This document shows, piece by piece, positions 3,001 to 47,702 of a DNA stretch of 64,000 nt. The notes below the pieces were generated by a model, which did no database searches, was not told where the DNA came from, and saw only the letters and a list, made by a program, of their open reading frames with translations. The translations under genes and the position numbers were made by a program. Position 1 is the stretch's first letter, and each line of letters starts with the position of its first letter. The stretch comes from Cenococcum geophilum. Its lineage: Eukaryota. The stretch spans positions 20,770,001-20,834,000 of the forward strand of contig CP158635.1 of assembly GCA_050273025.1 (NCBI GenBank), written 5' to 3'.

Positions 3001-3425
3001 GCCTTATAAGTAGATCTTTAAAGTCTTCCTACTTCTTAATCTTATTAATGGTCCTTATTTATGTATTAAAGTCTTAGTCCTATAGAATTCTTAATCCTAA
3101 GCTGGCTTTTATCTTAAGCTTTGCTTTTGCCTTAGTCTAACTAAGCTTAGGTATTTTTATCTTGTCTTAAGAGTTTTAAATCTTACTTATCTTATCTTAA
3201 GAATCTTATAACTGTGGGAAATACTATCCCGAGCTTATTTATATATTTTTAAACTAAGCTACTGCCCTACTCTATTGGTTTTCGTCCATTATAGGTCCTT
3301 AGGTATGCCTTATCTCGTCTTAAAAATCTTAAGCCTTTAGCCTTTTGCCTTTATTAAGTAATAAATTAGCACTAGCAGTTGTCTGCTTACTTAATCTCTA
3401 TAAAATACTTTTTCTTTTATCTTAT

Positions 3426-6952: not shown

Positions 6953-7611
6953 TTATACTATGCTATAAGCGCCCTATTATTCCACTTAACTTATATAGCT
7001 AGCATTTAGAACTATATTATATATTTAATCGCTAAGGTTTATTACGTAATGTCTTAGAGTTTTCTTTTTACTATAGTTACTGCCTCTAGGTCTCTAAACA
7101 TTTATATAAGTTGCTCTATAAACCCCTTCTAACTTAAGAATATAAACCGCACGTCCTAATTAGTGGTTGTTATTCCATTCGCCTATATTTCCATAAGGTA
7201 AGGCTTAAACTATTTAAGTGCCTTTCTTAATAGGAATAGTCCTGTATAAGCTATCCGATCTATAAATATTAGTAACTTTACTTCTTCTTACGTAACTTTA
7301 AAGTACATTTATGTAAGGAACCCTTTAAGCTTTAATCTTTCTCCTAAGAATCTCTTAATTAATGGTAACTTAACCTTTACTGCTCCTATCCCGTTAATCC
7401 TTTATTTAAATGTTATATTGTTTTCTATTAACTGGTTAACTATCTCTTATAGTTATCTAACCGTTACAGGTTGCTATAAGTTAGTATCTGCTATATTAGT
7501 GTCACCTCCTAACCTTAAAGTAGTTGCCGCCGCTAATGGCGTTATAGTAGCTGCTTTTAGTGGTATATTATTCAACTTTCTATATTTAACACTATAACTA
7601 GGTAGTAATTG

Positions 7612-11000: not shown

Positions 11001-12826
11001 AGCCCTATAAACGTTTACTAAGTCGTCTTAGCCTAAGCACCCTAACGCTATAGATATTAACACTAGAACCCTAAAGTACGCCCTACTAGGGTCCCCTAAA
11101 TAAGAAAGACGCATTAAGCTAGGCCTCTGCTTTAAATACAGAAGTAAGGACTATATCTTAAAATATTATCTTATCTCCTTACCTACGCCCTAAAACAATT
11201 TACGAACGGCTAATACTAGTAACCGTTTACCGCATTAATTTTCCGGTTACTGCCCCCGATCTTTACCTAGTTCTAGCCCCATATTTAGTAAGCACTACTT
11301 ATAAAGGCAAAGCTATAACCAACGTTCTATAGGAACCCCTTCCCGCTTATTACTAAAAGGTATATTTTAAAGTTAAGTCGCTTTCTAAGACGGCTCTACC
11401 TTAGGATCTCGTTAAACGCTTTAAATATTACAAACTTTAACTCTTAGGATTATAGCATAACTATTAACTATTATCTTTGGTAGAATAATTAATAGGCTAA
11501 TGCTTAAGTCCTAATTAATATAGGAGCTAGTGGCATAGGATTTATTAATAAGATCTTTATATAAGATAATAGTTTTACCTTAACCCCCCTTAACCGGCAT
11601 ATTAACGTATTTAGATTTAATAGTAAACGTATAGTCTTAGGCTAAATTACCTACGTAGTATACCTAAGACTCTAATACCTAAACTATGTCACGGAGTAAG
11701 TATAAGCGACAATAATATATAGCAAGGTAGATATTATTAAGCTATATACATAAACTGTATAAGGAGGTCAAGACGTTGCGTAAGGAAAGAAGGTAGGAAA
11801 ACGGGAAGAAAGGGCATATATTATTAACTTAGTTGCTTAGTTAACACATATATAGGCAAAATAGGGTTTAGGTCGTAGTCCTGGCAGAACTTAGCAGAAT
11901 TTGGTGGAACTTAGCAGAATATAGCAGAATGCCGTAGATTGCCGTTAAATTGCTATTTCGTGGTTAGTCTCTAATTACTAAGTCGGTGGAAATAGGTAGA
12001 CGTGTGCAAGGTATTACGGGGGTGTCCCGTAACAGTACCCCCCCTTTAAACTCGAGCTTCTGCGAGATAGGGCTGTAGTAGTTCTAGGTGGAGTTTATAA
12101 AAGTCTTCTGCGGCTTATATAAGTCCTATAGAGTTAATAGGTTCCTATAAGGACTTAATAAAGCCTCTCCATTTTATAAGATATATATATTAGCGTTTCC
12201 GTTTATTATACTTAATATTATTAATTCTTTTAATAAAGTACTCGTTCTCACCATCCACTTTAACTGGTAGGGGAGGGTCTTATATCTATCTAGGCAGGGC
12301 GTCTAATACGGGGGCAGTAGGGCGGAGGACTGACGTATAGAATACGGGGTAGATTTTAACCGTATTAGGGAGCTTCAGTCGGTAGGCATAAGGAGAGATA
12401 ACCTTTTCAACCTTATAAGGGCCAGCGTTCTTCCAATTAAGTTTCTTAGTAGGTCGTTTTATATTCAGATTTCTTATATCTAGCTAGACAAAATCACTAA
12501 TTTAGTAGGCCAGTACTAGGGTTCGTTTCTTATTCGCTAGATAGATTAAGCCCATATTATCTCATTAGTAAGAAACTGTTATAGTTCCTCTATCTTCTCT
12601 ACGAATTTATTTACTTTTATGACTTATAAGGCGTAATAAGCGGGGTAAGGAACATTACTAAAGGGTTTAAAACCCATTTATGGGTACTAGCCGTAATTGG
12701 CTAAGAACGGGAAAACTTTTATAGTTTTTAAGACGGAATTATTTGTAGTAAACTTAGTAAATATAAGCCAGTTAATCCAGTTATTCTATAAATATAACGT
12801 ATATATCCGAATATACTATTCCATTA

Positions 12827-13111
12827 ACGTGATCTACAAGCCAGTGGCCCACACAAGCAAGTGGCCCACCCCAACTAGCTAGAATACTAGCCATCTGCCG
12901 TACGGTCGCAATCCTAGGCGGCATACCACGTCGATCCATTAATAGAACCCACTGCTTAAGACTCTCTTCTTGTATTGGTGTAAGACGGCGATTTGGGGCG
13001 GCAGAACCGCGCTATTGTGGTGCTGCCATTTAGGTGGTTGTTGAATAACGCGTCGCGTGTTAGGTGGGGTGGGCCACTTGCTTGTGTGGGCCACTGGCTT
13101 GTGGATCACGT
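12827..13111. mobile_element. MITE of Tc1/mariner (Fot1/pogo-like) type, 285 bp
   Basis: ~47-bp terminal inverted repeats ACGTGATCYACAAGCCAGTGGCCCACACAAGCAAGTGGCCCACCCCA; TA TSD; the host integrase sequence rejoins exactly. Confidence 0.9.
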
Positions 13112-14299
13112 TATAGCATTTACGCGTTCCGTTTAGCTATCCGTTTCTAGGTAATACGTAGTAAATAATAGTGCTTTAATACAGAGTTAAGTAGTTAGTT
13201 CTTTTCAGAATACTAAGATAAACTAGCTACCTTTATCGGAGATAATCGTTTTGGGGAGTCTGTAGAGTTTCTATATATAATCTAAGAATAGTTAGGCAAC
13301 GGCAGGCGTTAATATATTAGGGCAGGCGATTAAGTATCTCATTTTAGATAGTCGGTTTATAACTACCATAATGTTCGTATAGCCTCTACTCTTAGAAAGG
13401 TCAACAATAAAGTTAATTAAGATATCCTTCCATCTTTAGTCCGGAATAGGCAGTAGCTTTAAAAGACCGTTATATACCTTATACGAAGCTTTAGCTTATC
13501 GGTAGGTATAGCAGCTAAAGACGTACCTTTGTGTTATATTATATATATTTGGCTAATAATACTCCCATTAGAGTAGTTTTAGGGTCTTTCCTCGGCCTAG
13601 GTAGCCGGCGACAGGTAAATTATATACGTGTTTAAGGAGTTTAAGCTTAAGCTCATCATAATTAGGGATAACTAGATAGTTCCAGTAGTACAAGTGGTTT
13701 CCGCGGGCTTCGCATTTACTTAGAGAAATCTTTTTAGAGCGTCTAATACCATCTTGCATTAGCTTAAGCGTCTCTTAGATAAACTTATTATTTAGGTATT
13801 CGTTAACTATAATCTATTCAATTAATCGATTAGTTATTTCAAGGACGTATACCGTAAGATCTTTAGTAAGAGGGTTAAATAGTTTAAGGCGAAGTAGGGT
13901 CTAATTTTAGTAAGAGCGCGCTTCTTCTAGGGCTGGCGCGTCTTACGAGCGTTAGGTTAGGGCATTAGGCTTCTAACCTTAGACGCCTAGGCGGTACGTA
14001 ATTAAGAATTAGAAATAAGACAGATATTCTAACCAGCGGGCCTAACAATGACTTAGCTGTTTCGTGGTTGTGAAGTACTATAGGTTTTTATAGTCGCTAA
14101 GGACCTTAATTAGAAATCCGGCGCCTTCTAGTTTAGGTCGCTATTATTTAAAACATCTAATAATAGCTAACAATTCCTTATCGTAGATCTTGTAGTTGCA
14201 TTCGGCTAGGCTTAGTCGTTTTAAGAAGTATACTATAGAGTATAATACTTTATCCTCGTTATATTGAGACAGGATGCCTCTAGTAACGTAGTTAAATAA

Positions 14300-15582
14300 T
14301 GTCACAGTACGTGCGGACTGTCAAGGTACGATGTACGAGGTGACTGTATATGATTGACAAACGATATCGTGTGAGGATCTATGTAGGAGGTAAGGTGGTA
14401 TATATACACGTCGCTCAGGGGTCAGGTCTGTGCTCGTGTCATAACAACACTAAGTCATAACAACGCGTCAGGTCAGTGCCGTAACAGTACATCCCCCTTC
14501 CGAAGGCGAGCTCCTATAAGCCAAGTAACGGCAGTAAAAACACAGAAGTAAAAAAAACAGATATATATATCCTCGTCCTTCTAGTCCTCAAAGGTCTTCG
14601 TCCCTTCAGTCCTCAGACCTCCTATATATCTACTACATCCCTCTCCGCTAGCACTCGTCTTGAGTACTAAATGCAACGTAGGAGTAAAACCAATGTAGAG
14701 AACAACAGAGAATTTTTTATTGTAGGTTTATCCGCAGGGCGTAGGGCGGATATTAATACTCGAAAGGCTCGAAGTTATAGAGATCAAGGTTAAGGTATAG
14801 ACTTGACAGGCTTAGGGTTGCGGAGATCAAGGTTAAGGTATAGGCTCGAAAGGCTCGGAGTACGGAGATCGAGGTTAAGGCGTAGACTCAAAAGGCTCGG
14901 AGGTTACGGAGATCGAGGTTAAAGTATAGGCTCGAAAGGCTCGGGGTGCGGAGATCGAGGTTAAAACGTAGATTCTTGTCGCGGTAAACTTGAAGTACTA
15001 TCTGTGTCGAAGACGAAGACGGAGACGGAGACGGAGACGAGATCGTAACCCATAGTCTTACACTGTAATCAAGACACGAGGACATAGCCCGCAGGGTGTC
15101 TCCCTGCAGCCGGCTTTAGAAACTCGGGACGTGAAGCAGAAGCATGGCTAGATACGGAGACTCGGAGACTAAGAAGAGGAACCATAGCCCGCAGGGTGTC
15201 TCCCTGCTACTAGCTTAGAAACTCGGATGAACGGAGAGGAGATCGGCTCGGGTACTCGAATAGATTTGATAGAGATTTTACTAGGTCGCATTGACGTGGA
15301 ACGAGGGTAAGAATCCCGCCCGGGGTAGGGTGGCTTTGGAAACGTGGCTTTGGAAACAAGGCCCTACCAGGGGCGTATAAGATGACACGACATACTGTCA
15401 TAGTACGTGCGGACTGTCAAGGTACGATGTACGAGGTGACTGTATATGATTGACAAACGATGTCGTGTGAGGATCTATGTAGGAGGTGAGGTGGTATATA
15501 TACACGTCGCTCAGGGGTCAGGTCTGTGCTCGTGTCATAACAACACCGAGTCATAACAACGCGTCAGGCCAGTGCCGTGACA
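14300..15582 (-). mobile_element. Short non-autonomous LTR element (TRIM-like, family D), 1283 bp
   Basis: 187-bp LTRs 14300-14486 and 15396-15582; TSD AATAA; PPT GAAGGGGGATGTAC on the minus strand; non-coding interior with tandem repeats. Confidence 0.9.
14759..14971. repeat. Tandem array of ~5 x 42-43 bp inside element D
   Basis: Unit approximately CTCGAAAGGCTCGGAGTTACGGAGATCGAGGTTAAGGTATAGG. Confidence 0.85.
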
Positions 15583-17940
15583 AATAAGTCGGCTTTTATA
15601 ACACTTATTTAGTTTAGGTTAAAGTGTTAGAGTATAGGTATAGTAGTAAATATAACCTTTAGATAGGCAAAGGCCTTCTTATATTCCTTATTAAAGATAA
15701 AGACTTTTTCCTTTTAGGTTAGAGCTATAAGGGATAAAACTAGGGCGGAGAAGTTATTAATAAACCGTTAGTAGAAATTAGTAAATCCTATAAAGGCTTT
15801 TACGTCCTTAACGTTCTCGGGTTCTTGCCAGTTTATAATTACTTTAACTTTCTTCAGGTCTATTTATATACCGTTTATAAAAATAAGGAGTCTAAGGTAT
15901 AGGACTTCCGTTTTATAAAACTTACATTTATCTATATCTAATTATAGACTAACTCCGTACAGGGCTTATAGAACAAGGTTAACGTATTTCCAATATTTAG
16001 TTAGGTTATTACTATATATTAGGATGTCGTTAATATAAGCAGTACAGAAGATATTTAGGTAGGGGCGTAGGGTATCGTTTATATAATGTTAAAACAAGCT
16101 TAGAGCGTTTATAAGGCCAAAGGGTATTACTAAGGACTTAAATAGTCTATATTGGATACGAAATGTAGTAAGCCATTTATCCCCTTTTATAATGCGGAGA
16201 CGGTTAAATATAGAGATAATATTAAGCTTTATGTAGTAACGAGCCTTACTTAGTTAGTTTAGCGTCTCTTATATTAACGGGATCGGATATTAGTTCTTAA
16301 CGGTAACGGCGTTAAGAGCTTAGTAGTCTATATAGAAGCGCAGACCGCCGCTAGGTTTCTTAACGAAGATCACTAGTGCGGCTATAGGCGATAAGCTTAC
16401 TCTAATAAATCTTTTACTTAAGTTCTCGTCTAAATACTTTCGTAGCACTTAGAGTTTATTTTAGGACATCCCGTATAAGGGTCCAAATCCGGGCTACTTT
16501 CCTTCTTTAAGTATAATCTTATAGTCGTATAGTCAGTGTTCTAGTAGCTTATTAGCTTCCTTTTATAAAAATGCATCTAGGCGATAATAATACTCTATTA
16601 GTACCTTTATAGCAGGGTTGGTGTACTTCTTTAGTGCCAAGGCCTTCTTAATATCGGCCATTATAATAGCGAAGATTATATGCTCGGGTTTCTTAGCAAG
16701 TTACGCTAGTAGGGTAGCTCCAATCAAGCGGATATCTAGGGTGCCGAGCTCGCTCAGATTATCCATAGTTTCTTATTTAGGTTTAGGTTCGGTATTAGGT
16801 ACGGAGTTAGTATTAGATTTAGGTTTAGGTTCTTTAAGAATCTTTTTTATAGTAAAATACTAGTCCTTCTAGTATTTTTATATATAGAGCTTAAACTTTT
16901 ACTTAGCTCGGGGCAGTATAGTACTTAGTAATAACTTATGGAATTTAGTAGAGTTTTTAGATCCTTAGTAGATATCGGTAGAATTCTTAGGCGTAGAGTA
17001 GGCATTAGTAGAAATCTTATATTAGTGGGATTTAGTGGAATTCCTAGGTTGGTAGAATCTAGTGGATTCTTTAGGTATAGGGTAGACAGTTATAGAAATT
17101 TTAGACTAGTAAATCCTAGTAGATTTTTTAGATTTTAGTTTTAGGTCTAAGTAGCAAGTTATAAGGCACTTTTACTTATAACGGGAGGCGGTAAATAGAA
17201 GCTTAAGGTTGTCCTAATTAATAGTTACCTTATATAGCTTTATCTAGGGTTATTTAAGAATTACTAAGTAACCCAGGGTGGTAACGAAAAGTTTAATTAA
17301 TTCTTTATAGTTTAGGTATTAGAGTCTCAGAAATACTACGTGGGTAATATAGCCTAAGACGGTGTGTTTGCTATTAAATCTAAATACGTTAATATACCGG
17401 TTAAGGGGGGTTAGGGTAAAACCATTATCTTACGCAAAGATCTTATTAATAAATCATATACCGCTAGCTCCTGTGTTAATTAGGATTTAAGCGTTAGCCT
17501 ATTAACTATTCTGCCAAAGACGGCAGTTAATAGTTATACTACGGTCCTAAGAGTCGGAGTTTGTAACATTAAATGCGTTTAACGAGATCCTATAGTAGAG
17601 CTATCCCGGAGAGCGACTTAGCTCTAGGACCTTCCTTTTAGAGGTAATTAGGGTGGGGTTCTTGTGGGATATTAGCTGTAGCTTCGTCCTTGTAAATAGT
17701 GCTTGCTAGATGCAGGGCTAAAACTAGGTAAAGATTGGGGACGGTAACCGGAAGATCAATGCGGTAAACGGCTGCTAGTGTTAGCCGTTTGTAATTCGTG
17801 TTTAGGCATAGGGACGGTGTAGTAGTTAGAGAAGTAAGAGCTACTTCTACATTTAAAGCAGAGGCCTAGCTTAATGCGTCGTTCTTATTTAGAGGACCCT
17901 AGTAGGGCGTACCCTAGGGTCCTAGTGTTAATATCCATAG

Positions 17941-18155
17941 TGTAACAGTGCAGTGTGGGAAAATTGAATGAACGACTTAATTGTAAATCTATGGAAATCA
18001 AGTAGAATATATACATGAATGTAGAGCTCTGACCGTAGGGTCTATAACTCGTAAGATTTGACTTATTTCCCATATACGAGATATACGAGGGTGGGCTGAA
18101 GCCACCACACAGGATGTAACCCTGTGTCTCAGCATAGTGTCTGTAGACTGTTACA
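17941..18155. mobile_element. Solo LTR (family E-related), 215 bp
   Basis: TGTAACAG...CTGTTACA ends; TSD CATAG on both sides; shares blocks with 63729-63963. Confidence 0.88.
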
Positions 18156-21100
18156 CATAGCGTTGGGGTGCTTAGGTTGAGATAATAACTTAGTAGATAT
18201 TTATAGGGTTGCCGTATTATATTAAGGAGCGGGCTTTAGTGTTAGGCGTAGTATATCATTATATTATTTATTAATGACGTTTACGTAGGCATTAAGGGCT
18301 CCTAGTAGGTCTACGCCTATTAGGGAGGTTTTTAGTTTAGGGCTTAGGGATTTAATAAGGCTATTAATTAGTGCGGAGTCGTTCCAGCCTGTTTCCTTTA
18401 TATAACGGTTAAATTTAAAGAAGTATACTAGGAAACTTTTCGTTCCTTAAGTTATATAGTTTATCTTTCTTTAAGTAGTAGCTTAGCGGTTTAGGTTACT
18501 ATATATAGCTTTAAGAAGTACAACTAGGCTTTACACTAAGTTTAGCTAAAGAGGTTTAATAAGGTTAGCTATATCTCCTCCTAGTTAACTTAGGGCGTAA
18601 CAGAGTCAGTTAGCTTTAGTTAGGTAATAGTTAGCGTTACTAGTTAGCTTATTTTTAAGCTGGCTTAAAAATAATTAGAGCTCTTATTATTTACTAGTAA
18701 ATACCAGAGGATCTAGTAATTGCTTAGATTATTTTAGTGTAGTAGTCGGCTTAGGGTAAGTAGCTACTACGGGTTCAAGACTTATATTCCGCGTATTTAT
18801 CTCTAAAGATAGCGTTTAGTCTTAAGGTCCTAGCGTAGGTGTCTTAAGGGCGCGGACTTCTTCTTGGAGGTCCTTAATTAATTACTAGTACCATACTTCT
18901 TGCTTAGCTTATTATTAATTTAAAGTGGCTTAGTTCTATTTAAGGGCGTCTATAAAAGATTTCTATATCCCTGCTAATTATTCTTAGAGTGCGGATATAA
19001 TACCGGCGGCCGTTATAGGGGCTTCGGGTTTGTTCTGTATATTAATAGTAGTATAGGTAGTTAACGCAACGTAGTGTCACGGAGTAAGTATAAGCGACGA
19101 TAATATATAGCAAGGTAGATATTATTAAGCTATATATATAAACCGTATAAGGAGGTTAAGACGTTGCGTAAGGAAAGAAGGTAGGAAAACGGGAAGAAAG
19201 GGTATATATTGTTAACCTGGCTACTTAGTTAACACATACATAGGCAGAATAGGGTTCAGGTTATAGTCCTAGCAGAATATAGCAGAATGCCGTAGATTAC
19301 CGTTAGATTGCCATCAGATTGCCGTTAGATTGCTATTTCGCGGTTAGTCTCTAATTGCTAAGTTGGTAGAAACAGGTAAACGTGTGCAAGGTATCACGGG
19401 GGTGTCCTGTAACAACTATGAAGAACTAATTAAGCTTTTTGTTACTACCTTAAGTCACCTAGTAATCCTTAAACAACCCTAAATAAAGCTATATAAGGTA
19501 ACCATTAATTAGGACAACCTTAAGCTTCTATTTACCGCCTCCCGTTATAAGCAGAAGTGCCTTATAACGCACTATCCTAACCCTAAACTAAAATTTAGGA
19601 AATCCACTAAAATCTATTAGTCTAAGATTTCCACCAATGTCTACCCCACGCCTAAGGAATCTACTAGATTCCACTAACCTAGGAATTCCACTAAATTCTA
19701 CTAACGTAAGATTTCTACTAATATCCACCAAGGATCTAAAAACTCTACTAAACCCTATAAATAGATCCTAAGTACTACACCGCCCTAAACTAAGCAGAAG
19801 CTTAAGCTTACTATATAAAAATACTAAAAGGACTAGTACTCTACTATAAAGAGTATACTTAAAGAACCCGAACCTAAATCTAATACTAACTCTATACCTA
19901 ATACCGAACCTAAAATTAAGTAAGGAACTATATAAAAAACTGTAGATAACTAGAGCCCGCTTAACGCCCTAGATATCTATATAATTGGAGCTACCCCGCT
20001 AGCGTAACTCGCCAAAAAACCTAAATATACAATCTTTATTATTACTATAGCTAATATTAAGAAGGCCTTAGCACCGAAAAAGCATACTAACCCTGCTATA
20101 AAGGTACTAGTAGAATACTATAACCGCCTAGAAGTATTTTTATGGAAGGAAGCCAATAAGCTACCGGAATACTAATTGTATAACTATAAGATCGTACTAG
20201 AAGAAGGAAAGCAGCCTAGATTTAGACCCCTATATAGGATATCCCAAAACAAACTCTAAGTGCTATAGAAGTATTTAGACGAGAACCTAAGCAAAGGATT
20301 TATTAGAGTAAGCTCTTTACCTATAGCCGCACTAGTAATCTTTATTAAGAAACCGGGCGGCGGACTATACTTCTATGTAGACTACTAAGCTCTTAACGCC
20401 GTTACCGTTAAGAACTAATATCCAATCCCGTTAATATAGGAAACACTAAACTAATTAAGTAAGGCTTATTACTATACAAAGCTTAATATTATCTCTGCAT
20501 TTAACCGCCTCTATATAGCAAAGGGAGATAAATAGCTTACCGCATTTCGTACTCGGTATAGATTATTTAAATACTTAATAACGCTATTTGGCCTCGCAAA
20601 TGCTCTAAGCTTGTTTTAATATTACGTAAATAACACCCTGCGCCCCTACCTGAATATCTTCTATACTGCTTATATTAATAACATCTTAATATATAGTAAT
20701 AACCTAACCAAATATTAGAAATATGTTAACCTTATCCTATAAGCCCTATACGGAGCTAGTCTATAATTAGATATAGATAAATACAAGTTTTATAAGACGG
20801 AATTCCTATACCTTAGATTTCTTATTTCTATAGACGGCATATAAATAGATCTAAAAAAAATTAAAGCAATTATAAACTAGTAAGAACCCGAGAACGTTAA
20901 GGATATAAGAGCCTTTATAGGATTTACCAATTTCTACTAACGGTTTATTAACAACTTCTCCGCCCTAGTTTTACCTCTTATAGCTTTAACCTAAAAGGAT
21001 AAAGCCTTTATCTTTAATAAGGAATATAAGAAGGCCTTTACTTATCTAAAGGTTATATTTACTACCGCGCCTATGCTTTAATACTTTAACCTAAACCGAA

Positions 21101-24100
21101 TAAGTATTAAAGAAGCTGACTTATCCGACTACGTCACTAGAGGTATCCTGTCTCAATATAATAAAGAGGGAGTATTATACCCTATAGCATACTACTTAAA
21201 ATAACTAAGTCTAGCTAAATATAACTACAAGATCTATAATAAGGAATTGCTAGCTATTATTAGATACTTTAAGCAATGGCAACCTAAACTAGAAGGCGCT
21301 AGATTCCTAATTAAGGTCCTTAGTAATTATAAGAACCTATAGTACTTCACGGCTATAAAATAGCTGAGCCACTGTTAGGCCTGCTAGTTAGAATACCTAT
21401 TTTATTTCCGATTCTTAATTACGTACCGCCTAGGCGTTTAAGGCTAAAAGCCTAATGCCCTAACCTAATGCTTGCAAGACGTGCCAGTACTAAAAAAGGC
21501 ACGTTCTTACCAAAATCAGACCCTACTTTATCCTAAACTATTTAACCCTCCTGCTAAAGATCTTACGGTATAAGTCCTTAAAATAACTAATTAATTAATT
21601 AAATAGATTATAACTAATAAATACCTAAATAATAAGTTTATCTAAGAGACGCTTAAGCTAATTTAAGATAGCGTTAAACGCTTTAAGAAGATCTCTCTAA
21701 GTAAATATAAAGCTCGCGGAAACCGCTTATATTACTAGAACCGTCTAGTTATCCCTAATTACAATAAACTTAAGCTTAAGCTCCTTAAACACATATATGA
21801 CTTACTAGTAGCCAGCTACCTAGGCTAAGGAAAAACCCTAGAGCTACTCTAATGGGAGTACTACTGGCCGAATATATATAATATAATATAAAGGTATATC
21901 TCTAGCTATTATATCTGCCAATAAGCTAAAGCTTCGCACGAGATATATAACGGCCTTTTAAAGCTACTACCTATTCCGGACCGAAGATAAAAGGATATCT
22001 TAATTAACTTTATTATTGACCTCCCCGTAAGTAAGGGCTATATAAATATTATAGTAGTTATAGACCGACTATCTAAGATAAGACACTTAATCGCCTGCCC
22101 TAATATATTAACACCTACCGTTGCCTAACTATTTCTAAATTATATATAAAAACTCTACAGACTCCCTAAAACGATTATCTCCGATAAAAGTAGCTAGTTT
22201 ATCTCTATATTCTAAAAAGAACTAACTACTTAACTCTATATTAAAGCACTATTATCTATAATATACTACCTAGAAACGGATAGTTAAATAGAACGTATAA
22301 ACGCTATAATAGAATAGTATATTTGGATATACACGTTATACTTATAAGATAACTAGATTAACTAGCTAGTATTTACCAAGTTTACCGCAAATAACTCCAT
22401 CTTAGAAACTATAAAGGTCTCCCTATTCCTGGCTAACTACGGCTAGCATCTATAAATGGGTTTTAAACCCTTTAGTAATGTTCCTTGCCCTGCTTATTAC
22501 GCCTTATAAGTTATAAAAGCAAATGAATTTATAGAGAAGATGGAGGAACTATAATAGTTCCTTACTAATGAAATAATATAGACTTAATCTATCTATAAAG
22601 CCGCAGCGAATAAGAAACAAACCCTAGGACTAGCCTACTAAATTAGTAACTTTGTCTAGCTAGATATAAAAAATCTAAATATAAAACGACCGGCTAAGAA
22701 GCTTAATTAGAAGAACGCTGGCCCTTATAAGGTTAAGAAGGTTGTCTTCTCCTACGCCTACTAACTAAAGCTTCCTAATACGGTTAAAATCTACCCCATA
22801 TTCCACACGTCAATCCTCCGCCCCATTACTCCCGCATTAAATGCCCTACCCGGACAGATATAAGACCCTCCCCTACTAGTTAAAGTGGATGGTAAAAACG
22901 AGTACTTTATTAAAAGAATTAATAATATTAAGTATAATAAACGGAAACGTTAATATATATATCTTATAAAATGGAAAGGCTTTATTAAGCCCTTATGGGA
23001 ACCTATTAACTCTATAGGACTTATATAAGCCGCAGAAGACTTTTACAAACTTTATCTAGAACTACTACAGCCCTATCTCGCAAAAGCTCGAGTTTAAAGG
23101 GGGGGTACTGTTATAGAATACCCCTGTAACACCTTATATACGTCTACCTATTTCCACTAACTTAGCAACTAGAGACTGACTATAAGATAGCAATTTACGG
23201 CAATCTAACGGCAATCTGCTATATTCTGCTATATTCCGCCAAGTTTTACTAAATCCTATTAAGTTCTGCCAGGACTACTACCTAAATCCTATTGTGCTCT
23301 GTGTATGAGTTAACTAAGCAACTAAACTAACAATATATACCCTTTCTTCCCGTTTTCCTACCTTCTCTCCTTACGTAACGTCTTAACTTCTTACACAGTT
23401 TATATATATAGCTTAATAATATCTACCTTGCTATATATTATCGCCGCTTATACTTACTCCGTGACATTAACCTATAATCTAATTAATCTTTAGATTATAT
23501 TTCTGTAACTAAGGTATACCTAATACTGCCTTATCCCGTCCTAATGGTAGGATATTAAAACACATCTTAATTTATCTTTCTTTAATGGTTATCTAAATAG
23601 GTCCTATTTTAAGGTTAATAATCCTTCCTCCATAGGTTATTAGATCTCCTAAAATTATAACTAATAGGTAAAGTTATTCCTTCTATTTATAAGGTAATCC
23701 TATTTTTTTAACTACTACTAGTAAAATATAGTTCCTTATTACTCCACTATTTATTAATGCTTTAAACTATTAATTTTACTAATTAACTTATAAATTTAAG
23801 TATTGTCCTTAAATTTCCTTAAGGGTCTAAGGCTTTACTACTGGCTCCCTTTAGTCCTATAGGCCTCTATTTTTCCTAACTATTAGCTACTTAATCCTAT
23901 TATACTTAGCTCGCTTTTCGGCTAATACCTAGTTTACTTTTTATCCTCTATATACTATAAATACATATTCTCTCGGCATTCTTATCACTATTATCTATCT
24001 AAGCATTTTTCCGTAAGAAATCTTTTTAGTTAAAGTATTAAGTCTCCTAACTCCTAAACTTCTATTAGATGCTATCCGTGTATATACTTAGCATTTTTAT

Positions 24101-26353: not shown

Positions 26354-29300
26354 TGTAACGGAACCTTGTAGCAAGTACTACGATGGGCTCGTTAATAGGC
26401 TAGGTGTGTAGGTAATATAAACTAAAGTTAATAACGTAATGATAACTAGTGGAGTGGTTACCCAACAGATTAACTCTAATTATATTCTAAGAATTACTAC
26501 AAGGAAGGAACTATCTAGGTAGGGACTGTAGTCCTTTAAATACACGACCGTACTCCTAAGAAATCCTTCTTATACGTAATATACGTGTGCTCTATTTGCT
26601 CCGTTACGGATTATATAGATTACATAGATTATATAGATCTTATTATATAACTTAGTTACTATTTCTCGTTATATAGTTCTACCAGCTCCATCCTAAACCG
26701 TGCTCTTATTAACTAACTAGCTTCTTCTAACTCTTCTCTAAGTAGTTATAGTATTATACTTAAAGCGTCCGTAACACTATCTCCCTCCTCTCTATCTTCG
26801 TCCTTAAAGATTTTAAGTATTTCCAGGTCGTTTACTAGAGGTGTAATATCTATTTAATTAATTTGGTTAATATTGTTACTTATAATACCTAAAGCAATTT
26901 CTCTTTCTTCTATAGTCCGATGTACTCGCACTATTACTACTATCCTATCGCTAGGTAAGATAATACCTTCTCTATATTCTTATTATGCGAAAGAGGGGTT
27001 AGTTTATATTACGCTAGTAAGTCCTTTATCTCGGCAACCTTCCTTTTATTTAGAGTGCACTAAAGCGAATATTTATTCGTCCTATAACGTTCGCTCTATT
27101 TCTAACGCTAAGTATACGCGTCTTATAACTCTTAATAGTCTCTAAGTTCCCTAAGTAATTTGTTATAGGGTCTTGTGTTTAATCTGCTACTATAAAGCTC
27201 AATAGTAAGCTCTTAAGCACCCTTAATAAACTATACCAATCGCGAGAGGCGGAGCAAGAGGCTGCAGCTGCTTAACAGCGTGCCCTTAAGACTCGTCTTT
27301 TGGCCTTCGCTTATCTTTTACGTCTTAAATAGGTTCGTAAGAAGGTTCGTTTTAAGGAGTAGAAACTTATAAAATAAGGTCTGCAGGAACTTAGTAATAA
27401 GAGAACTAACTCTCTTCCTATAAAGGGAATAACTCTAAGTAGTTTAGCAGTCGCTCTTCCTAGGTTCCCCTTAGGTAACTTATTTTTTAGTAATCCTTCT
27501 TTAATATTACCTAACCTGTTTTCTTCTAATACTCCTATACCTTTCCTATAGCGTTCTTTAAATTTTCTAGTAGCTCCTAGGTAGTTTTATTATAGCCTAT
27601 CTACTTAACCTTATACTATATTTTATTGTTAACGTCCTTATAACTAACGATCCTTAAAACTTGCTATTTATCCTCTTCTTGCCCTCTATATGTGTCTGCT
27701 TTGTAGGCTAATAGCTTAACTTTCCTATATACTAGCTCTAGCATTGCAATATGCTATATAGGGTAGATTTTTATTCTAGCTGGTAGGTTTAACTTAAATA
27801 TAACCAGTAAAATTCTTTATATAATTTTAAAAGGTCCTAGTCTAACGTGGTCTAACTTCTTACTTAATTGTTAACTCTTAAAGTTTTTATATAGTAGCTA
27901 TACTTTATCTCCCTCCTTAAGATCTAGTCCCTTAGATCTCTTAGCGTTATAGTACCTTTTTATCCTTTGCTGTACTACCTTAGCTATTTCCGTAAGGTTC
28001 TTATAAAGATTTATTAGTATCTCTATCCTTTACTTAGCTGTACTACTTATCTTCTTTACTTAACGTGGCGATAATAATATTCTTGGCTTATATCCGTAAT
28101 TCGCCTTAAATAGTAAAGTACCTATTCCTTCCTGTGGTGTTATATTGTATATAAACTATATAACTAGTAACAATAATACCTAATTATTCTATACGTGATT
28201 AATATAGTGCCTTAGATACTGCTTTAGTGTCTAATTTAATTTTTCTGTTTAACCGTCTGTCTGCGGATAATATATAGTGGAAGTTGCTGCTTAAACTCCT
28301 TATTTCGCTAAAAATACCTCCTAAAATGCTGCTATAAATCTTAAATCTCTATCCAATATAATTTTGCTTAGTACTCTATGTCTTATAAATACTTCCTTAA
28401 TATAGATTCTAGCGATATCTTTCGCTAAGATTTCTTCCGTATAGGCTATAAAGTATCCCTACTTCGTAAGCTTGTCTACTATTACTAAGATTGCGTTATA
28501 ATCTTGTCCTATAATAGGATCTTTTAATTTTAGCAACTTAATAATAAAGTCCCATAATATAACCTCCTATAGTCTCTTTAGTATTTTAATAGGTTGTAGC
28601 CCTCTATATAGCTTATGCCTCGTTAGTTTGTTCCTTTAGTAATCTAAACACTCTCTAGTGACCCTTTTAGCTATCCTTTAGATTCCGTTAATAATATACT
28701 CCTCCTAAAGTCTTAATACTAAGCCCGTAGCTCCATTATGTCCTTAAGTTAGTCCTTTATAGAAATATTCTATAAATTGCTCTGCTATACTTCTTAGGAT
28801 ATACTTTACTTCTTAGTTTTTGTATATATCTATCTATAGATCTTCTAGTTATGCTTCTAAAATTCTTTATACCTAAAAGCTCTCTAGTGACTTATAAACC
28901 TTATCTAGTTTATCTTTATAAGTCGCTATAATTTTCGGATAATTATACCTAATCAATTTATCTATATCTTTTCGCAATAAAGCCCCTAATGGCTTTTCAT
29001 TATTTTATAGTTTAGCCTTTTAACTTAACGTATTGGCTCGCGTATTGTCTATACCCTTAGTATACTAAATCTTAAAATAGTATTCTATAAGCATCTCTGC
29101 CTATCTAACCTATCTTTAGTTAAGTTCCTTTATTATTAGGAATTCTATTAGGTTCTTATAATCCGTCTTAACTATAAATAGTTTCTCTATACCTTATAAG
29201 AATACTCTCTATTCCTTTAATACTATAACTATACCTAATAACTTCTTATTATAAATGTTATAGTTTAACTCTGGTGGTATTATCTTCCAACTATAGTATA

Positions 29301-32300
29301 CTACTAGATGCTATCTATTTAGATGCTTCTGTATAAAGTATACTCTTAGTATAAAGTCTAATGTATCTATTTTTACAACCGTCTCTAGACCTAGTTAATA
29401 GATCTTAAGAACTGGCTCCTAGGTAAACAACCTCTTAACTTTTTTAAATAGTTTTTATTATTCTCTTCCCTATACCTATAGTTCTTCTTTCTTTATTAAC
29501 CGCGTAAATGGCTTAATATTCTTTAACTATTGCGCTATAAACCTTCTGTAGTAATTGCAAAACCCTAAAAATAATCTTAACTATATAACGTTCTCTAGTT
29601 CTTACCAATTTACTATAGCTTTAATCTTCTTTAGATCTATATTAAGTTGGCCTAGTTTAATAATAAATCCTATAAAATCGGTCTTCCTAGTAAAGAACTC
29701 GCATTTCTTAATTACTACTAGCATTTATTTCTCTTATAGTCTCTTTAAGACCTATTTAACGTATTCTCTATATTCTTCCTTAGTTATTAAGTAGATAATA
29801 ATATTGTTAAGATATACCATAATAAATTCATCTAAGTGTTCTCCTAATATATTATTAATTTACTTTTAGAACGTTGCTAGTGCGTTTATAAGCCTAAATT
29901 ATATAACTAATAGTTTATATAGTCCTTCCTTTAACCTAAAGGCTGCCTTTTATTTATCGCCTTCCTTAATCCTAATCTAATGGTACGCCCATCTTAGATC
30001 TATCTTTGTAAAGATTTGCGCATTACCTATCCTATCTTAGATTTCGCTAATTAAGGGTAAAGGATACCTATCCTTCCTAGTAATACTATTTAACTGTCTA
30101 TAGTTAATATATAGCCTTAGTTTACTATTCTTCTTTAGTATAAATAGTACTGGATAACCTACTAATGATTGCGATAGTCTAATGTATCCCTTTTATAAGT
30201 TTTTTTAGATAAACTCTTTTAATGCTCTACCTTTCTCTTTAGTAAGCTTATAGATTAAAAAGAACCTTAAACTTATTCCTAGTTCTAATTCTATCTTATA
30301 GTTCTATACTACGTATTTTAACAGCTTTTTGCTTTTTAGCGACTATAGTTTCTTGCTATACTTATAGTATCTCTTTAGTATATAGCTTAGTCCTCTTTCT
30401 GTTTCTTTATAGGTTGCTCCTACTTAGTACTATATTAACTTAGCTTATTATTATATTTTACGGCGTTAAGTATTTTTAATATTGACCTAACCTATAATCT
30501 AATTGATCTTTAGATTGTATTCCTATAACTAAGGTATTCCTAGTACTGCCTTATTATTCCCTAATGGTAATATATTAAAAGACATCTTAATTTATCTTCC
30601 TTTAATGGTTAGCTAAATAGGTCCTGTTTTAAGATTAATAATACCTCCTCTATAGGCTATTAGATCTCCTAAAATCGTCACTAATAGGTAAGAACATTTC
30701 TTTTTCCTGTGTGGTAACCCCATTCTTTTAACTGCTACTAGCGAGATATAGTTCCTTATTGCTCCACTATCTATTAATGCCTTAAACTGTTAATCTTGCC
30801 AATTAACTTGTAAATTTAGGTGTTGTCCTTAAATTCCTTTAAGGGTCTAAGGCTCTACTACTAGTTCCCTCTAGTCCTATAGGCCTCCACTTTTCCTAAC
30901 TATTAGCTGCTTAATCCTATTTATACTTAGTCTAACTTAGGCCAATACTTAGTTCGCTTTTTATCTTTAATATATTATAGACAGGTATTCTCTAAACATT
31001 CCTACTATTATTATCTATCTAGGCATTCTTCCGTAAGGAATCTTCCTAATTAAAGTATTAAGTCCCTTTATTCTTAAACTTCTATGGGGTGCTAACTATG
31101 TATATACTTAGTGTTTTAATATTTCGCCTTATCTATTATCCAATATATTCTTATTAGATACTTCTAATTTTTATCCTTAGGTGCTCTATATATATTATAC
31201 ATATTATCCACGCATGCTATCTACAATAGTGTATAATATACTTGGTGTCTTAGGTTAACTCTTAGCTCGTCTTTATCCTTAAGTTTAAACCTTTCTTATG
31301 CTAATCTAAGCGTTGCAACTTCGTTCGCAGGTACTAAAAATTATTTTTTACTTCTCTAGTCCTCTAATTGCTCCTTTAGATCTTTTAACGTTATAATTAA
31401 GGCCCCTTTAATATAAGTTATAGCCTTTTCTATAATTGGGTGGTCTTAGATAACTTTTTCATCTAACTATATATAGAAATCTTCCTACTCGTTATTGTGT
31501 TGTTATCTATACCACTTTTAGTATAACCCTTTAAGTGTGTACGGCTCGTCCGTAAGGAAGTATCTTTTTATTACTATGTTATAACAGCCCTTTATATATC
31601 GTTCTTTAAATCTAGTTAGAATCCCTAGATCCTCTTCTTGTTCCAGTTTAGTAAGCCACTTAGCCCTTAATATGCCTATTCTTGGCCTATTAGTAATTCT
31701 TTATATAGGTGCTCTATCCCTTATACGACCTAGTAAACTAGATCTCTTATTTAGTTTTTGCTCTTGCTATAAGGTAATTCTTACTCTAAATTCCTCTATA
31801 GTTTCTTTTCTTTTACGTCCTATAAGTAGATCCTTGAAGTCGTTATGCTTCTTAATCTTAGTATTAACTTTTTAATCTTTAGGCTAAACACTGCGTTCCC
31901 CTAGTAAGTCCTCTTGGTCTATATATTTATCTCCTAGTTTAATTACTATTTATATTATAGATTCTCTAATCTTATTAGTGGTCCTTATTTATACTTTAAA
32001 GTCTTAGTCCTATAAGATTCTTAATCCTGAGCTTACTTCTAACTTAAGTTTAGCTCCCGCCTTAGTCCAACTAGGCGTCTATAGTGTTTTTATCTTATCT
32101 TAAGAGTCTTAAATCTTATTTATCTCATCTTAAGAATCTAATGCCGTAGGAAACTTTTCTCCTAAGCTCATTCATATGTCTTTAAACTAAGCTACTGCTC
32201 TACTCTATCGGTTTTTGTCCGTTGTGGGTCCTTAAGCTATCCTTATCCTGTTTTTGGAATCTTAGATCTCTCTTATCTCTTTTTAAGAATCTTAAGCCTT

Positions 32301-34322
32301 TAGCCTTTTATCTTTATTAAGTGGTAAGCTAGCACTAGCAGTTATCTGCTTGCTTAATCTTCTTTAGATATTACTCCTTCCGTCTTATAAAGCGATGGAT
32401 GCCGTATCTAATAGTGTTATAATGCCCGTTACTAATCCTTACTTTATAGCGGTCTTAGTCTCTACTTCTATTATAACTTCGCTAAGGTTTATACGTTCCT
32501 AGTAAACTGCCTTTATTTCCTTATTGTCTGTAAATATTTCGCCTACATTAAACTCGTCGTCTTTAATATCCAATCTACGCGATAGTTTATTAGTTCCTCT
32601 ATACTCTATAAATTTTGGCTCTTATGGCTAATAGCTTACACCGTACTTAGCATCTTTATAAATTTGGCATGCGTTATTATAACAAAACGCAAAACTTCTA
32701 ATTAAATACTCTTTTATTCCTTATAGTACACTATTATCCCTCTATACATATATGTTTTCTACTACTAGTCTAGTTTCCTTTATTATATAGTAACTCTAAC
32801 TATCTTTGCAATCCCTTATAAAATAACCTTATTTCCCATAATTTATATAAGCTCTATCTCTAAACCATTAACTTTACTATAAAGTCCGCCTAAACGTCTT
32901 CTGCTACTAAGATCCCTGGTTTAGCCTCTGCTCCTTAGTCTTATAATTACTAGATTTTTAACCTCTAGGTTTCTATAATTTCTTACTCTATCTCTTATAG
33001 GCTTTTTTAGTACTGCTTAGGTCTATTAGCTCTGCGCTATACTATAGTTTCTAAACTGGCTTTAGTTATTGCGTACTCTATATCTTATATAACTATAAAA
33101 CTCTATCCTAGCCTCGCTTAGCCTGTTCCCTTTAATAGATTTAATTATTAATCTTAATCGCTTAATCTATTAATTCCCTTAGGGTGTCCGCATCTTCCAT
33201 TAGAATAATTACGTCCTAGACTTTAGCCTTAAGTCCCTATTTATACTGTGCCATAAACGCCCTATTATTCCACTTAACTTATATTACTAGCGTTTGGAAC
33301 TATATTGTGTATTTAATTACTAAGGTTCGTTGCGTAATATCTTAAAGTTTCCTTTCTACTATAGTCGTTAACTCTAGATCTCTAAATATCTGTATTAGTT
33401 GCTCTATAAACCCTTCCTAACTTAAGAACATATACCGCACGTCCTAATTAGTAGTTATTATTCTATTGGCTTATATTTTTATAAGGTAAGGTTTAAACCA
33501 TTTAAGTACCCTTCCTGACAGGAATAGCCCTATATACGCTATTCGGTCTACAGGTGTTGCTAGCTTTGCTCCCTTTTACGCAACCTTAAAATATATTTGC
33601 GTAAGGAATCCTTTAAGCTTTAATCTTTCTCCTAAGAATCTTTCGATTAATAGTAACTTAACCTTTACTGCGCCTATTCCGTTAATCCTTTATTTAAGTG
33701 TCGCATTGTTCTCTATTAACTAGTCAACTATCTCTTATAGCTGTCCGACCGTCACAGGTTGCTGCAAATTAGTATCTGCTATACTGGTGTCGCCTCCTGA
33801 CCTTAAAGTAGTTGCCGCCGTTAATGGCGTTGTGGTGGCTACTTTTGGTGGCATATTATTTAACTTTCTATATTTAATACCGTAACTAGGTAGTGATTAT
33901 ATAATGGAACCTTATAGTAAGTACTACGATGGGCTCGTTAATGGGCTAGGTGTGTAGGTGATATAAACTAAAGTTAACAACGTAATAATAACTGGTGGAG
34001 TGGTTGCCTAATAGATTAACTCTAATTATATTCTAAGAATTACTACAAGGAAGGAACTATCTAGGTAGGGACTGTAGTCCTTTAAATACACGACCGTACT
34101 CCTAAGAAATCCTTCTTATACGTGATGTACGTGTGCTCTATCTGCTCCGTCGCGGATTATATAGATTACACAGATTACACAGATCTTATCACGTGACTCG
34201 GTTACTATTCCTCGTCACATGGTTCTACCGGCTCCATCCTGGACCGTGCTCTTATTAACTAACTAGCTTCTTCCGACTCTTCTCCAAGTAGTTATAGCAT
34301 TGTACTTAAAGCGTCCGTAACA
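26354..34322 (-). mobile_element. Family A copy A3, uninterrupted full length (~7.97 kb), RIP-inactivated
   Basis: LTRs 26354-26776 and 33900-34322; near-perfect TSD TAATG/TAAAG; gag-PR-RT-RH-IN-chromodomain order; RT VYLNNIIIY (RIP of YLDD) near 29800. Confidence 0.93.
26885..27560 (+). pseudogene. Antisense ORF of A3: Zn2Cys6-like Cys cluster plus coiled coil (end approximate)
   Basis: Reads SLYSYYAKEGLVYITLVSPLSRQPSFYLECTKANIYSSYN, with Tyr at RIP-convertible Cys positions. A downstream helical ..LRLKxVRKKVRFKExKL..GLQEL segment follows. Confidence 0.65.
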
Positions 34323-37035: not shown

Positions 37036-40000
37036 TATAACGGAACCTTATAGCAAGTGCTACAATAGGTCCTATCAATGGGCTAGGTGTATAGGTAATG
37101 CGTAAGTTAACAACGTAATAATAACTGGTGGAGTAGTTGCCTAACAGATTAACTCTAATTATATTCTAAGAATCACTATAAGGAAGGAACTATCTAGGTA
37201 GGGACTAAGGGTCCTTAAATATACGCCCGTACTCCTATAAAATCCTTCTTATATGTAATATACGTAAGATACGTAAGGTATATACGTTCCATTCATTCTC
37301 TATATTCCTTACGTAGCATATTATATAACTTATACTACTATTCCTTATTATATAGTTCTATCGGTTCTATCCTAAACTATACTCTTATTAACTAACTAGC
37401 TTCCTCTAACTCCTCTCTAAGTAGTTATAGTATTATACTTAAAGCGTCCGTAATACTATCTCCCTCCTCTTTATCTTTGTTTTTAAAGATTCCTAATATC
37501 TCTAAGTCGCTTACTAGAGGTATAATATCCGTCTAATTAATTTAGTTAATATCGTTACTTATAATACCTAAAGCCTCTTCTTTTTCACACGCGCAACGAC
37601 GCGCCCGCACTATTGCTGCAATACTATTACTAGGTAAAATTATGCTATCTCTATATTCTTATTATGCGAAAGAGGGGTTAGTTTACGTTGCGCTAGCGAG
37701 TCCTTTATCTCAGCAACCCTCTTCTTATTTAGAGTGTACTAAAGCAAATATTTATTTGTCCTATAACGTTTGCTTTTTCTCTAACGCTAAATATACGCGT
37801 CCTATAACTCTTAATAGTCGTTAAGTTCCCTAAGTAATTTGTTATAAGGTTTTATGTTTAATCTGCCGCTACGAAGCTTAATAGTAAGTTATCGCAAGCC
37901 TTAGCTAAGCTAGAATGTTCTTATAATATAGAATAGAAAGCCCTAGATACTTAAATCGCGGCATCTGCTTATTTTCTTCGCCTTAAAAAGGTTCGTAAGA
38001 AGGTTTATTTTAAGAAGTAGAAACTTATAGAACAAGGTCTATAGGAACTTGGTAATAAAAGAACGGATTTTCTTCTAATAGTAAAGGAAATAACTTTAAG
38101 TAGTTTAGCAATCGCTCTTCCTAGGTCCCCCTTAGGTAACTCATTTTTTAGTAATCCTTCTTTAATATTGCCTGACTTATTCTCTTCTGATACTCCTATA
38201 CCTTTCCTATAGCGTTCTTTAAATTCTTTAGTAGTTCCTAGGTAGTCTTATTATAGCCTATCTACTTAACCTTATACTAGGTTTTATTATTAATATCCTT
38301 ATAATTAACAATCTTTAAAACTTACTATTTATCTTCTTCCTGTCCTTGGTATGTATCTGCCTTATACACTAGTAGCTCGGCATTTCCGTATACTGGTTCT
38401 AGCATTGCAATATACTATATAGAGTAGATCTTCATTTTAGCTAGTAGGTTTAACTTAAACATAACCAGTAAAATTTTCTAACTAATTTTAAAAGGTCCTA
38501 GCCTAACGTAGTCTAACTTCTTACTTAGTTATTAACTTTTGAAATTTTTATGTAGTAGCTATACTCTATCTCCCTCCTTAAGATCTAGTCCCTTAGATCT
38601 CTTAGTATCATAGTATTTCTTTATTCTTTACTATACTACTTTAGCTATTTCCGTAAGGTCCTTATAAAGATTCATTAATATCTCTATCCTTTACTTAGCT
38701 GTGCTACTTATCTTCTTTACTTAATATAGCGATAGCGATGTTCTTAGCTTATATCCATAATTTGCCTTAAATGGTAACGTATCCATTCCTTCTTATGGTG
38801 TTATATTATATACAAACTATATAACTAGTAACAGTAATACCTAATTATTTTATACGTGATTAATATAATGTCTTAGATACTGCTCTAGTGTTTAATTTAA
38901 CCTTTCCATTTAACCGTTTGTCTGCGGATGGTATACGGTAGAAGTTGCTGCTTAAACTCCTTACTCCACTAAGAATACCTCCCAAAATACTACTATAAAT
39001 CTTGGATCTCTATCCGATATAATCTTACTTAGTACTCTATACCTTATAAATACTTCTTTAATATAGATTTTAGCGACATCTTCTGCTAATATTTCTTCTG
39101 TATATGCTATAAAGTATCCCCACTTTATAAGCTTGTCTACTATTACTAAGATTATATTATAATCTTGTCCGGTAATAGGATCTCTTAATTTTAGCAACTT
39201 AATAATAAAACCTCCTATAGTCTTTTTAGTATTTTAATAGGTTATAGCCCTCTATATAGCTTATGCCTTGTTAGTTTATTCCTTTAGTAATCTAAACACT
39301 CTCTAGTGACCTTTCTGGCTATCCTCCAGATTCTATCAATAATGTACTCCTCCTAGAGTCTCGACACTAAGCCTATAGCTCCATTGTGTCCTTAAGTTAG
39401 TCCTTTATAGAATTCTTCTATAAATTACTCTACTATGCTTCTTGGGATATACTTCGTTTCTTAGTTCTTATATATATCTAACTATAGATCTTCTAGTTAT
39501 GCTTTTAGAATTCTCTATACCTAAAAGCTTTTTAGTGTCTTGTAGACTTTATCTAATTTTTCCTAAGTTACTGCGATCTTTGGATAATTGTATCTAATTA
39601 ATCCATCTATATCCTTTCGCAGTAAAGCCCCTAATAGCTTCTCGTCGTTTTGTAGTTTGGCCCTTTAACTTAAAGTATCTACTCGTATATTATCTATACC
39701 CTTAGTATACTAAATCTTAAAATGGTATTCTATAAGCATCTCTACCCATCTAACCTGTCTTTAGTTAAGTTCCTTTATTATTAGGAATCCTATTAGGTTT
39801 TTATAATCCGTCTTAACTATAAATAGTTTTTCTATACCTTGCAAGAACGCTCTCTATTTTTTTAGTGCTATAACTATACCTAATAACTCCTTATTATAGA
39901 TGTTATAGTTTAGTTCTAGTAGTATTATCTTCCTACTATAATATACCACTAGGTGCTATCCGTCTAGATACTTTTATATAAAATATACTCCTAGTACAAA

Positions 40001-47039: not shown

Positions 47040-47702
47040 TTATAGGAAAGGTACAGGAGTATTAGAAGAAATTAGGTTAGGTAATATTAACAAAGAAGAA
47101 TTAAAAAAGGAGTTACTTAAGGGGGACCCAGGAGGAACAGCTACTAAGCTATTTAGACTTATTTCCTTTATAGGGGAGTTTGTCTTCCGTTACTAAGTTC
47201 CTGCAGACCTTATTTTATAAGCTTCTACTCCTTAAAACGGACCTTTTTATAAACCCGTTTAAGACGCAGAAGATAAGTAAAGGCTAAGAGACAAGTTTTA
47301 AGGGCACGCTATTAAGCAGCTACAGCCTCTTATTCCGCCTTTTATAATTAACGCAATTTATTAAGGGCGCTTAAGAGCTTACTATTAAGCTTTATAGCAG
47401 TAGATTAAACATAAAACCCTATAATAAATTACTTAGGGAACTTAAAGACTATTAAGAGTTATAGGACGCGTATATTTAGCGTTAAAAATAAAGTAAACGT
47501 TATAGAATAAATAAATATTTACTTTAGTATACTCTAAATAAAAGGAAGGTTGCTAAGATAAAGGACTTACTAGTATAACGCAAATTAACCCTTCTTTCGC
47601 ATAATAAGAACACGGAGATAGTATTATTTTACCTAGTAATAGTATAGCAGTAATAGTGCGAGCACGTTAAACTATAGAAGAAAGAGAAATTGCTTTAGGT
47701 AT
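47040..47702 (-). pseudogene. Antisense Zn2Cys6-like ORF of A2 (ends approximate)
   Basis: Minus strand reads SPCSYYAKEGLICV, retaining Cys codons that are lost in the other two copies. Confidence 0.62.

Follow-up and report, generated by a model that had tools for sequence, protein, structure and literature searches.

A dead antisense gene for a six-cysteine protein in Cenococcum geophilum chromoviruses, and a pol frame that crosses it in intact relatives

Results

A complete chromovirus copy in a nest of mutated repeats

The window, by which we mean the whole stretch of 64,000 nucleotides analysed here, comes from a genome of 178 Mb in 7 contigs. It is a nest of repeats that, as far as about position 59 kb, combines low GC with a strong TpA excess, the signature of repeat-induced point mutation (RIP). 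On its minus strand, positions 26356–34322 hold a complete copy of a Ty3/gypsy chromovirus with a long terminal repeat (LTR) at each end and with dead gag and pol. The 421-bp 3′ LTR (26356–26776) is 91% identical to the 5′ LTR of the same copy (33902–34322), and a purine run on the element strand (26777–26800), the polypurine tract, adjoins the 3′ LTR. Using tblastn with the gag and pol of an intact relative, L064, we located the remains of gag and of the protease, reverse transcriptase, RNase H and integrase of pol at 27667–33901 (minus strand), the domains being named on L064. The pol chromodomain was projected from the same relative (Pfam Chromo, pol residues 1092–1140) to approximately 27520–27666 (minus strand), in a frame common to the window copy. 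Beyond it the pol frame continues over 26662–27519 (minus strand), through the antisense gene described below and the polypurine tract into the 3′ LTR; this continuation is filled with stops in the window copy and open in L064 and in a second intact relative, L063. A single tblastn match in an ungapped frame joins residues 8–1420 of L064 pol to window positions 30927–26662. Pfam finds the chromovirus order of gag, protease–reverse transcriptase–RNase H–integrase–chromodomain on intact L064, with which the window copy is colinear, and the two LTRs and the polypurine tract are present in the window copy itself.

The gag frame of the element is unusually long, at about 980 codons (L064 4204–7152, minus strand; window 30864–33944), and its second half contains tandem repeats. 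It overlaps the start of the pol frame, which suggests a frameshift. Another minus-strand copy of this gypsy family lies at 3409–6955, its gag interrupted by inserts at approximately 3420–5110 and 5983–6954; the first insert contains G+T-rich tandem repeats, and its 5-bp-scale junction is duplicated as a 210-bp repeat (3422–3631 and 4902–5111). A second, more distant gypsy family with about 35% pol identity and LTRs near 350 bp occupies 9777–23469 as nested copies, none of which was matched by our antisense-gene profiles. At 59501–62003 (plus strand) the window holds an unmutated, host-like region with two long frames of 432 and 408 amino acids. The longer contains repeated Cys/His units resembling zinc fingers, with a weak Sina_ZnF match below the cut-off. 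The shorter has no Pfam match and bears an acidic motif that, judged by eye, we take to resemble that of DEDD exonucleases.

A dead two-exon gene lies antisense to pol

The chromovirus copies of the window were confirmed to carry a dead two-exon gene, antisense to the element, for a protein with six cysteines and a long helix. Exon 1 of the first copy (26885–27113, plus strand) has lost its start codon to ATA and bears the six cysteine or tyrosine columns at 26975, 26984, 27005, 27047, 27056 and 27083. A 55-nt intron follows (27114–27168), placed by alignment to intact L064 and to junction-spanning proteins, with a mutated donor and the acceptor TAG retained. Exon 2 (27169–27551) encodes the long helix, as predicted on the relative P0161, and then an acidic Pro/Phe-rich tail. 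The second copy lies at 37564–38212 (plus strand; intron 37793–37847) and the third at 47040–47702 (minus strand; intron 47473–47419), with a frameshift in exon 2.

All three copies begin where the original prediction had put them (26885 and 37564 on the plus strand, 47702 on the minus strand), each with ATA as its present start codon. The peptides it had quoted are there as well: the copy at 47702 contains SPCSYYAKEGLICV, and those at 26885 and 37564 contain ECTKAN. The probable intron it had proposed is borne out by the intact relatives and the junction-spanning proteins. As it had stated, only cysteines 1, 3 and 5 ever survive as Cys among the three window copies. The other positions are Tyr, though not every degraded codon is the TAT it had named, and a consensus residue guessed as His is His in none of 30 genomic copies. 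Its gene limits of 26885–27560 were right at the start but not at the end, which lies at 27551, roughly 10 codons inside the chromodomain's end.

The six columns follow the spacing C-x2-C-x6-C-x13-C-x2-C-x8-C. Across the first 30 genomic copies fetched they hold only Cys or Tyr, with the full set of six Cys kept in none; a set of 93 distinct copies, taken from 120 loci, has Cys or Tyr in 545 of its 558 cells, and a single copy keeps all six Cys. Among the same 93, the ATG survives in 19, the intron donor GT in 9 and the acceptor AG in 87. The family is large, with 150 exon-1 matches scored out of 2926 candidates in the genome; all 150 scored exon-2 matches contain stops, and RIP has killed every copy examined in the source genome. 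A mutation-tolerant form of the six-position pattern matched the window three times, at exactly the three copies, against three matches in total over 30 shuffled windows (mean 0.1); since the pattern was derived from those copies, the result is largely circular, and it is the relatives that carry the weight.

Intact relatives encode a spliced protein under purifying selection

Profile searches of protein databases returned 190 representative proteins at E ≤ 0.001, along with further near-intact ones, mostly unnamed fragments. P0001 and P0161 carry all six cysteines and read on directly into the helix, and the cysteines are conserved in six further database proteins. The joined splice junction is carried by 9 of 246 database proteins, and one 90% cluster contains both unspliced (P0165, P0167) and spliced (P0168–P0171) readings of the same gene; from the contiguity of the junction-spanning forms on short contigs we infer that they come from RNA. 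In the least mutated relatives the intron runs GT...AG, and its length across the family is 55, 61, 64 or 127 nt. A single protein, P0043, passes from exon 1 to exon 2 through a junction unlike that of the other spliced proteins, by alternative splicing or a deletion.

The gene is tied to the retrotransposon. In 79 of 80 metagenome loci a minus-strand chromodomain lies no more than 900 nt downstream, and the exception, L061, also shows the end of pol at that place, so that all 80 are linked to pol, with the qualification that 72 come from one assembly and the loci are thus not independent. In every related locus fetched, the gene stands tail-to-tail with pol. L063 and L064 are intact elements with open gag and pol and stop-free spliced antisense frames of 209 and 197 amino acids, each with six Cys; both are collapsed assemblies with terminal repeats of 126–127 nt and may blend near-identical copies. 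The six cysteines and the open, conserved antisense frame expected of relatives spared by RIP are found in these two elements.

Between L063 and L064, a single pair, dN/dS is 0.06 for exon 1 and 0.23 for exon 2, compared with 0.10 for true pol. Differences in exon 2 peak at the antisense wobble position (38/118, against 15/117 and 15/118 at the other positions), and such changes pile up there in all seven pairs compared, in a region where the wobble positions of the two strands differ. In exon 1 the wobble position is common to the antisense and pol frames. From the ratios and the exon-2 pattern we conclude that the antisense protein is the selected product, under purifying selection in the intact relatives as judged from this one pair. 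The same figures weigh on the proposal, made for genes of this kind (PMC7264820, available text), that the useful product is the antisense RNA itself, acting as self-limiting double-stranded RNA with the protein secondary. Selection on the protein, as seen in the ratios of both exons and in the wobble pattern, makes that account highly improbable here, although both roles could coexist. With the intact relatives, the spliced products and the dN/dS values, the original prediction of an element-encoded, spliced antisense gene for a six-cysteine and coiled-coil protein is supported.

The pol frame runs through the antisense gene in intact relatives

The gene had been placed between the chromodomain and the polypurine tract. 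It does lie there in antisense, but in the intact relatives the interval is not free spacer, because the pol frame crosses it. In L063 and L064 no stop follows the chromodomain, and the frame passes exon 2, the intron, exon 1, the leader and the polypurine tract to stop 39 and 46 codons inside the LTR, respectively. In L064, where the chromodomain ends at residue 1140 of 1420, this amounts to a pol extension of 280 codons. Other relatives retain the frame to differing degrees. L061 has 5 pol-frame stops; its open part starts at codon 59 of the stretch, spans an intron of 127 nt and reaches 37 codons into the LTR. In L062 the frame is interrupted only by a single frameshift, which disrupts the antisense gene as well, and L067 has 10 pol-frame stops.

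When the antisense protein was kept and its codons, intron and leader were resampled, the pol frame was free of stops in 0 and 3 of 5000 randomisations, with a mean of 7.5–7.9 stops. Over the leader or untranslated region, exon 1 and the intron, all four elements have zero pol-frame stops, an outcome reached in 29, 109, 26 and 46 of 4000 randomisations (0.7–2.7%). The introns of 55, 61, 64 and 127 nt are all 1 mod 3 and so keep the pol frame, as do the lineage leaders of 105, 108 and 114 nt; were they independent and unconstrained, five length changes would all stay in frame with odds of 1 in 243; slippage at triplet-like runs in the leader could make such changes commoner. Among 71 mutated metagenome copies, the pol frame shows no column of unexplained stops, against 2–10 in the other five frames.

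The copies of the source genome do not single out the pol frame in this way. Among 54 of them, columns of unexplained stops number 8 in the pol extension and 2 in true pol; in the set of 93 they number 3 and 0, and another minus frame also has 0. At 7 of the 8 stop-filled columns, L063, L064 or the metagenome copies carry a mutable sense codon. The minus frame that pairs codon for codon with exon 2 shows 0–1 columns of unexplained stops in the source-genome copies, though L063 has 11 stops in it and L064 has 3; this may reflect a limit of the method. A pol frame open for read-through is thus seen directly in the intact relatives and would have extended to the ancestor of the source-genome copies.

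The amino acids of the extension are mostly unconstrained. Over exon 2 the pol-frame dN/dS between L063 and L064 is 1.40, which marks that part of the extension as a free linker; selection on amino acids acts on the antisense protein and not on most of the extension. Over the approximately 34 codons before the LTR, by contrast with this linker, an acidic motif is conserved and the pol-frame dN/dS is 0.11–0.61 in six of six pairs, values based on small counts and a protein-guided alignment. Selection appears to keep the frame open even though most residues are free to drift. Messenger RNAs with long untranslated tails undergo decay, and candidate reasons for an open pol frame are escape from that decay and delivery of the acidic end motif.

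Since the pol frame is open straight through the antisense gene in the intact relatives, a single stretch of DNA probably encodes protein on both of its strands. That openness, together with the wobble position common to both frames in exon 1, is also what one would expect if the plus-strand frame were a mere shadow of a coding pol tail. When the pol tail was kept and its codons resampled, however, the antisense gene was open with six Cys in only about 1% of 5000 trials, and the pol-frame dN/dS of 1.40 over exon 2 and the existence of spliced products point the same way. A captured host gene carried as passive cargo fits poorly with the linkage to pol at all 80 loci. We regard a shadow or a passenger as the least probable account of the frame, with the shadow largely refuted by the codon resampling, the junction-spanning proteins and dN/dS.

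The cysteine cluster resembles Gal4-type clusters and the helix is predicted to dimerise

The original description of the product as Zn2Cys6-like holds as a resemblance, while Pfam Zn_clus (PF00172) stays below its cut-off in all 20 exon-1 sequences and structure searches of the antisense protein models gave no significant match. Zn_clus is nonetheless the commonest weak match, found for 12 of the 20 at E up to 1 (best E 0.0054); L064 scores 14.9 bits against a cut-off of 21. DUF3716 (PF12511) matches 4 of the 20 at E up to 1, and aligns to L064 exon 1 over profile positions 3–59 with E 0.0006 and 20.1 bits, below its cut-off of 22. Foldseek placed Zn2Cys6 proteins in rows 1–13 and 15–17 of 19, all at E 0.66 or worse, and the first Atlas hit (0.92) is an ascomycete cluster automatically named Zn(2)-C6.

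Like the Gal4-type Zn(II)2Cys6 factors (PF00172; Gal4, Hap1, Put3, Ppr1, Leu3), the protein has cysteine spacings of x2, x6, x2 and x8, and behind its cysteines come a helix predicted to dimerise and an acidic tail. It departs from them in several respects. At only about 200 amino acids it is small, and its profile score is below the Pfam cut-off. In Gal4-type clusters the third spacer is 5–12 residues long; here it is 13, so the cluster falls outside C-x2-C-x6-C-x5-12-C-x2-C-x6-8-C. Gal4-type clusters also carry basic DNA-contact residues between cysteines 2 and 3, whereas the corresponding loop in the relatives reads SKEGLV, AKEGLV, AEKRLS or EEKKLV and is not consistently basic. The cluster region is poorly predicted in both structure models. 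Zinc-cluster identity stands as a likeness to Gal4-type clusters.

In the model of P0161, exon 2 forms one helix of 75 residues. A homodimer of this protein, which lacks the tail, scored 0.51 against 0.00 for the best of three controls, and the runs share at least 83% of contacts with pLDDT of at least 78; among microbial structures the dimer-score mark is attained by 21 of 30 solved pairs and by none of 23 single chains, and among eukaryotic ones by 17 of 29 pairs. The prediction could stem from likeness to solved coils. Gal4-type factors dimerise through a parallel coiled coil after the cluster, whereas the 75-residue coil of the antisense protein is predicted to be antiparallel (contacts 94–133 and 115–115).

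These features bear differently on what the protein would do. The sub-threshold Zn_clus and DUF3716 scores and the poorly conserved basic residues would suit a six-cysteine zinc module that binds protein or RNA, such as Gag, integrase or the genomic RNA, with a remote or convergent likeness to Gal4. Against such a module, which we consider rather unlikely, stand the x2-x6 and x2-x8 spacings, which fit the Zn2Cys6 family, and the agreement of Foldseek, Pfam and Atlas, albeit at weak scores, in ranking Zn2Cys6 proteins high. Slightly more probable, if still unlikely, is a bridging factor that serves replication or escape from silencing on DNA or chromatin instead of regulating a promoter. A non-canonical cluster on a predicted antiparallel dimer fits this role, as the coil would hold the two zinc heads far apart and suit the linking of two LTR ends or of element DNA to chromatin, and the products of plant antisense open reading frames are nuclear, some with SMC-like coils (PMC7264820, available text). 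The acidic hydrophobic tail fits an activator better, and all examined source-genome copies were hit by RIP, so that any protection failed there.

Discussion

In a 2011 study of the Boty elements of Botrytis, the gene brtn is said to be spliced and transcribed and was reportedly placed in the 3′ untranslated region. The antisense gene of the window shares the layout of brtn, a gene that runs opposite to a chromodomain-bearing gypsy element and sits between its pol and its 3′ LTR (PMC7264820, PMC8365987, PMC4227169, PMC5987419). The spliced transcript reported for brtn is matched here by the junction-spanning proteins and their probable RNA origin. The two differ in that brtn is reportedly part of a 3′ untranslated region, whereas the pol frame crosses the antisense gene in the intact relatives. 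No protein named BRTN appeared among the matches of our homologue searches; the likeness drawn here is one of layout, and we found no statement of a six-cysteine cluster in BRTN in the available text of the papers citing brtn.

Other transposons offer partial parallels. The DUF3716 proteins REP9-1 and REP9-2 of Zymoseptoria tritici REP9 are likewise small, transposon-borne fungal proteins, but REP9 is a class II DNA transposon, unlike the gypsy element of the window (PMC8232023, available text). Antisense open reading frames of plant gypsy elements (Grande gene23, RIRE2, Retand TRP28) and HBZ of HTLV-1 also lie between pol and the 3′ LTR, and nuclear and regulatory roles have been proposed for them; in HTLV an antisense promoter resides in the 3′ LTR (PMC7264820, PMC11963269, available text). 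Unlike the window gene, the plant frames occupy spacers of 2.9–6.6 kb (same sources). Sequence likeness between the window gene and these frames would not be expected. The word ‘overlap’ is absent from the main texts of PMC7264820 and PMC11963269. For the antisense extra genes of LTR retrotransposons, PMC7264820 gives no known function in its available text, and among the matches listed in our literature searches there is no description of the zinc cluster or of the overlap with pol. The layout of the antisense gene is already known; the pol overlap in intact relatives is, as far as those matches go, new.

We give about an even chance to the antisense product being a zinc-binding nuclear protein, dimeric by prediction, that regulates transcription from the element's own LTR. 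On this model, an antisense transcript would start from a putative promoter in the 3′ LTR, the intron would be removed and the spliced product translated. The six cysteines would form a Gal4-like cluster with two bound zinc ions, the exon-2 helix would pair antiparallel with that of a second copy, and the acidic Pro/Phe-rich tail would serve as an activation region. The dimer would then act on the LTR, its presumed target, as the element's own regulator.

A more far-reaching reading, to which we lean a little less, makes the 3′ end of the element family dual-coding: a 280-residue pol tail would lie on the strand opposite a spliced zinc-cluster gene, cover the intron of that gene as well as the polypurine tract, and end about 40 codons into the 3′ LTR. 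Its frame would be kept for the conserved acidic C-terminal motif or for a stop codon close to the end of the genomic RNA, which would spare it the decay of long-tailed mRNAs, and the antisense product would be an antiparallel, two-headed zinc-cluster protein on the LTRs.

The intact natural versions of a zinc-cluster-like product described here make it possible to test directly whether a fungal retrotransposon encodes a regulator of its own, as complex retroviruses do. If the pol read-through is real, it is an unusual antisense overlap in which one strand has to remain coding across an intron of the gene on the other, and calling the stretch a 3′ untranslated region would be a mis-annotation of such elements.
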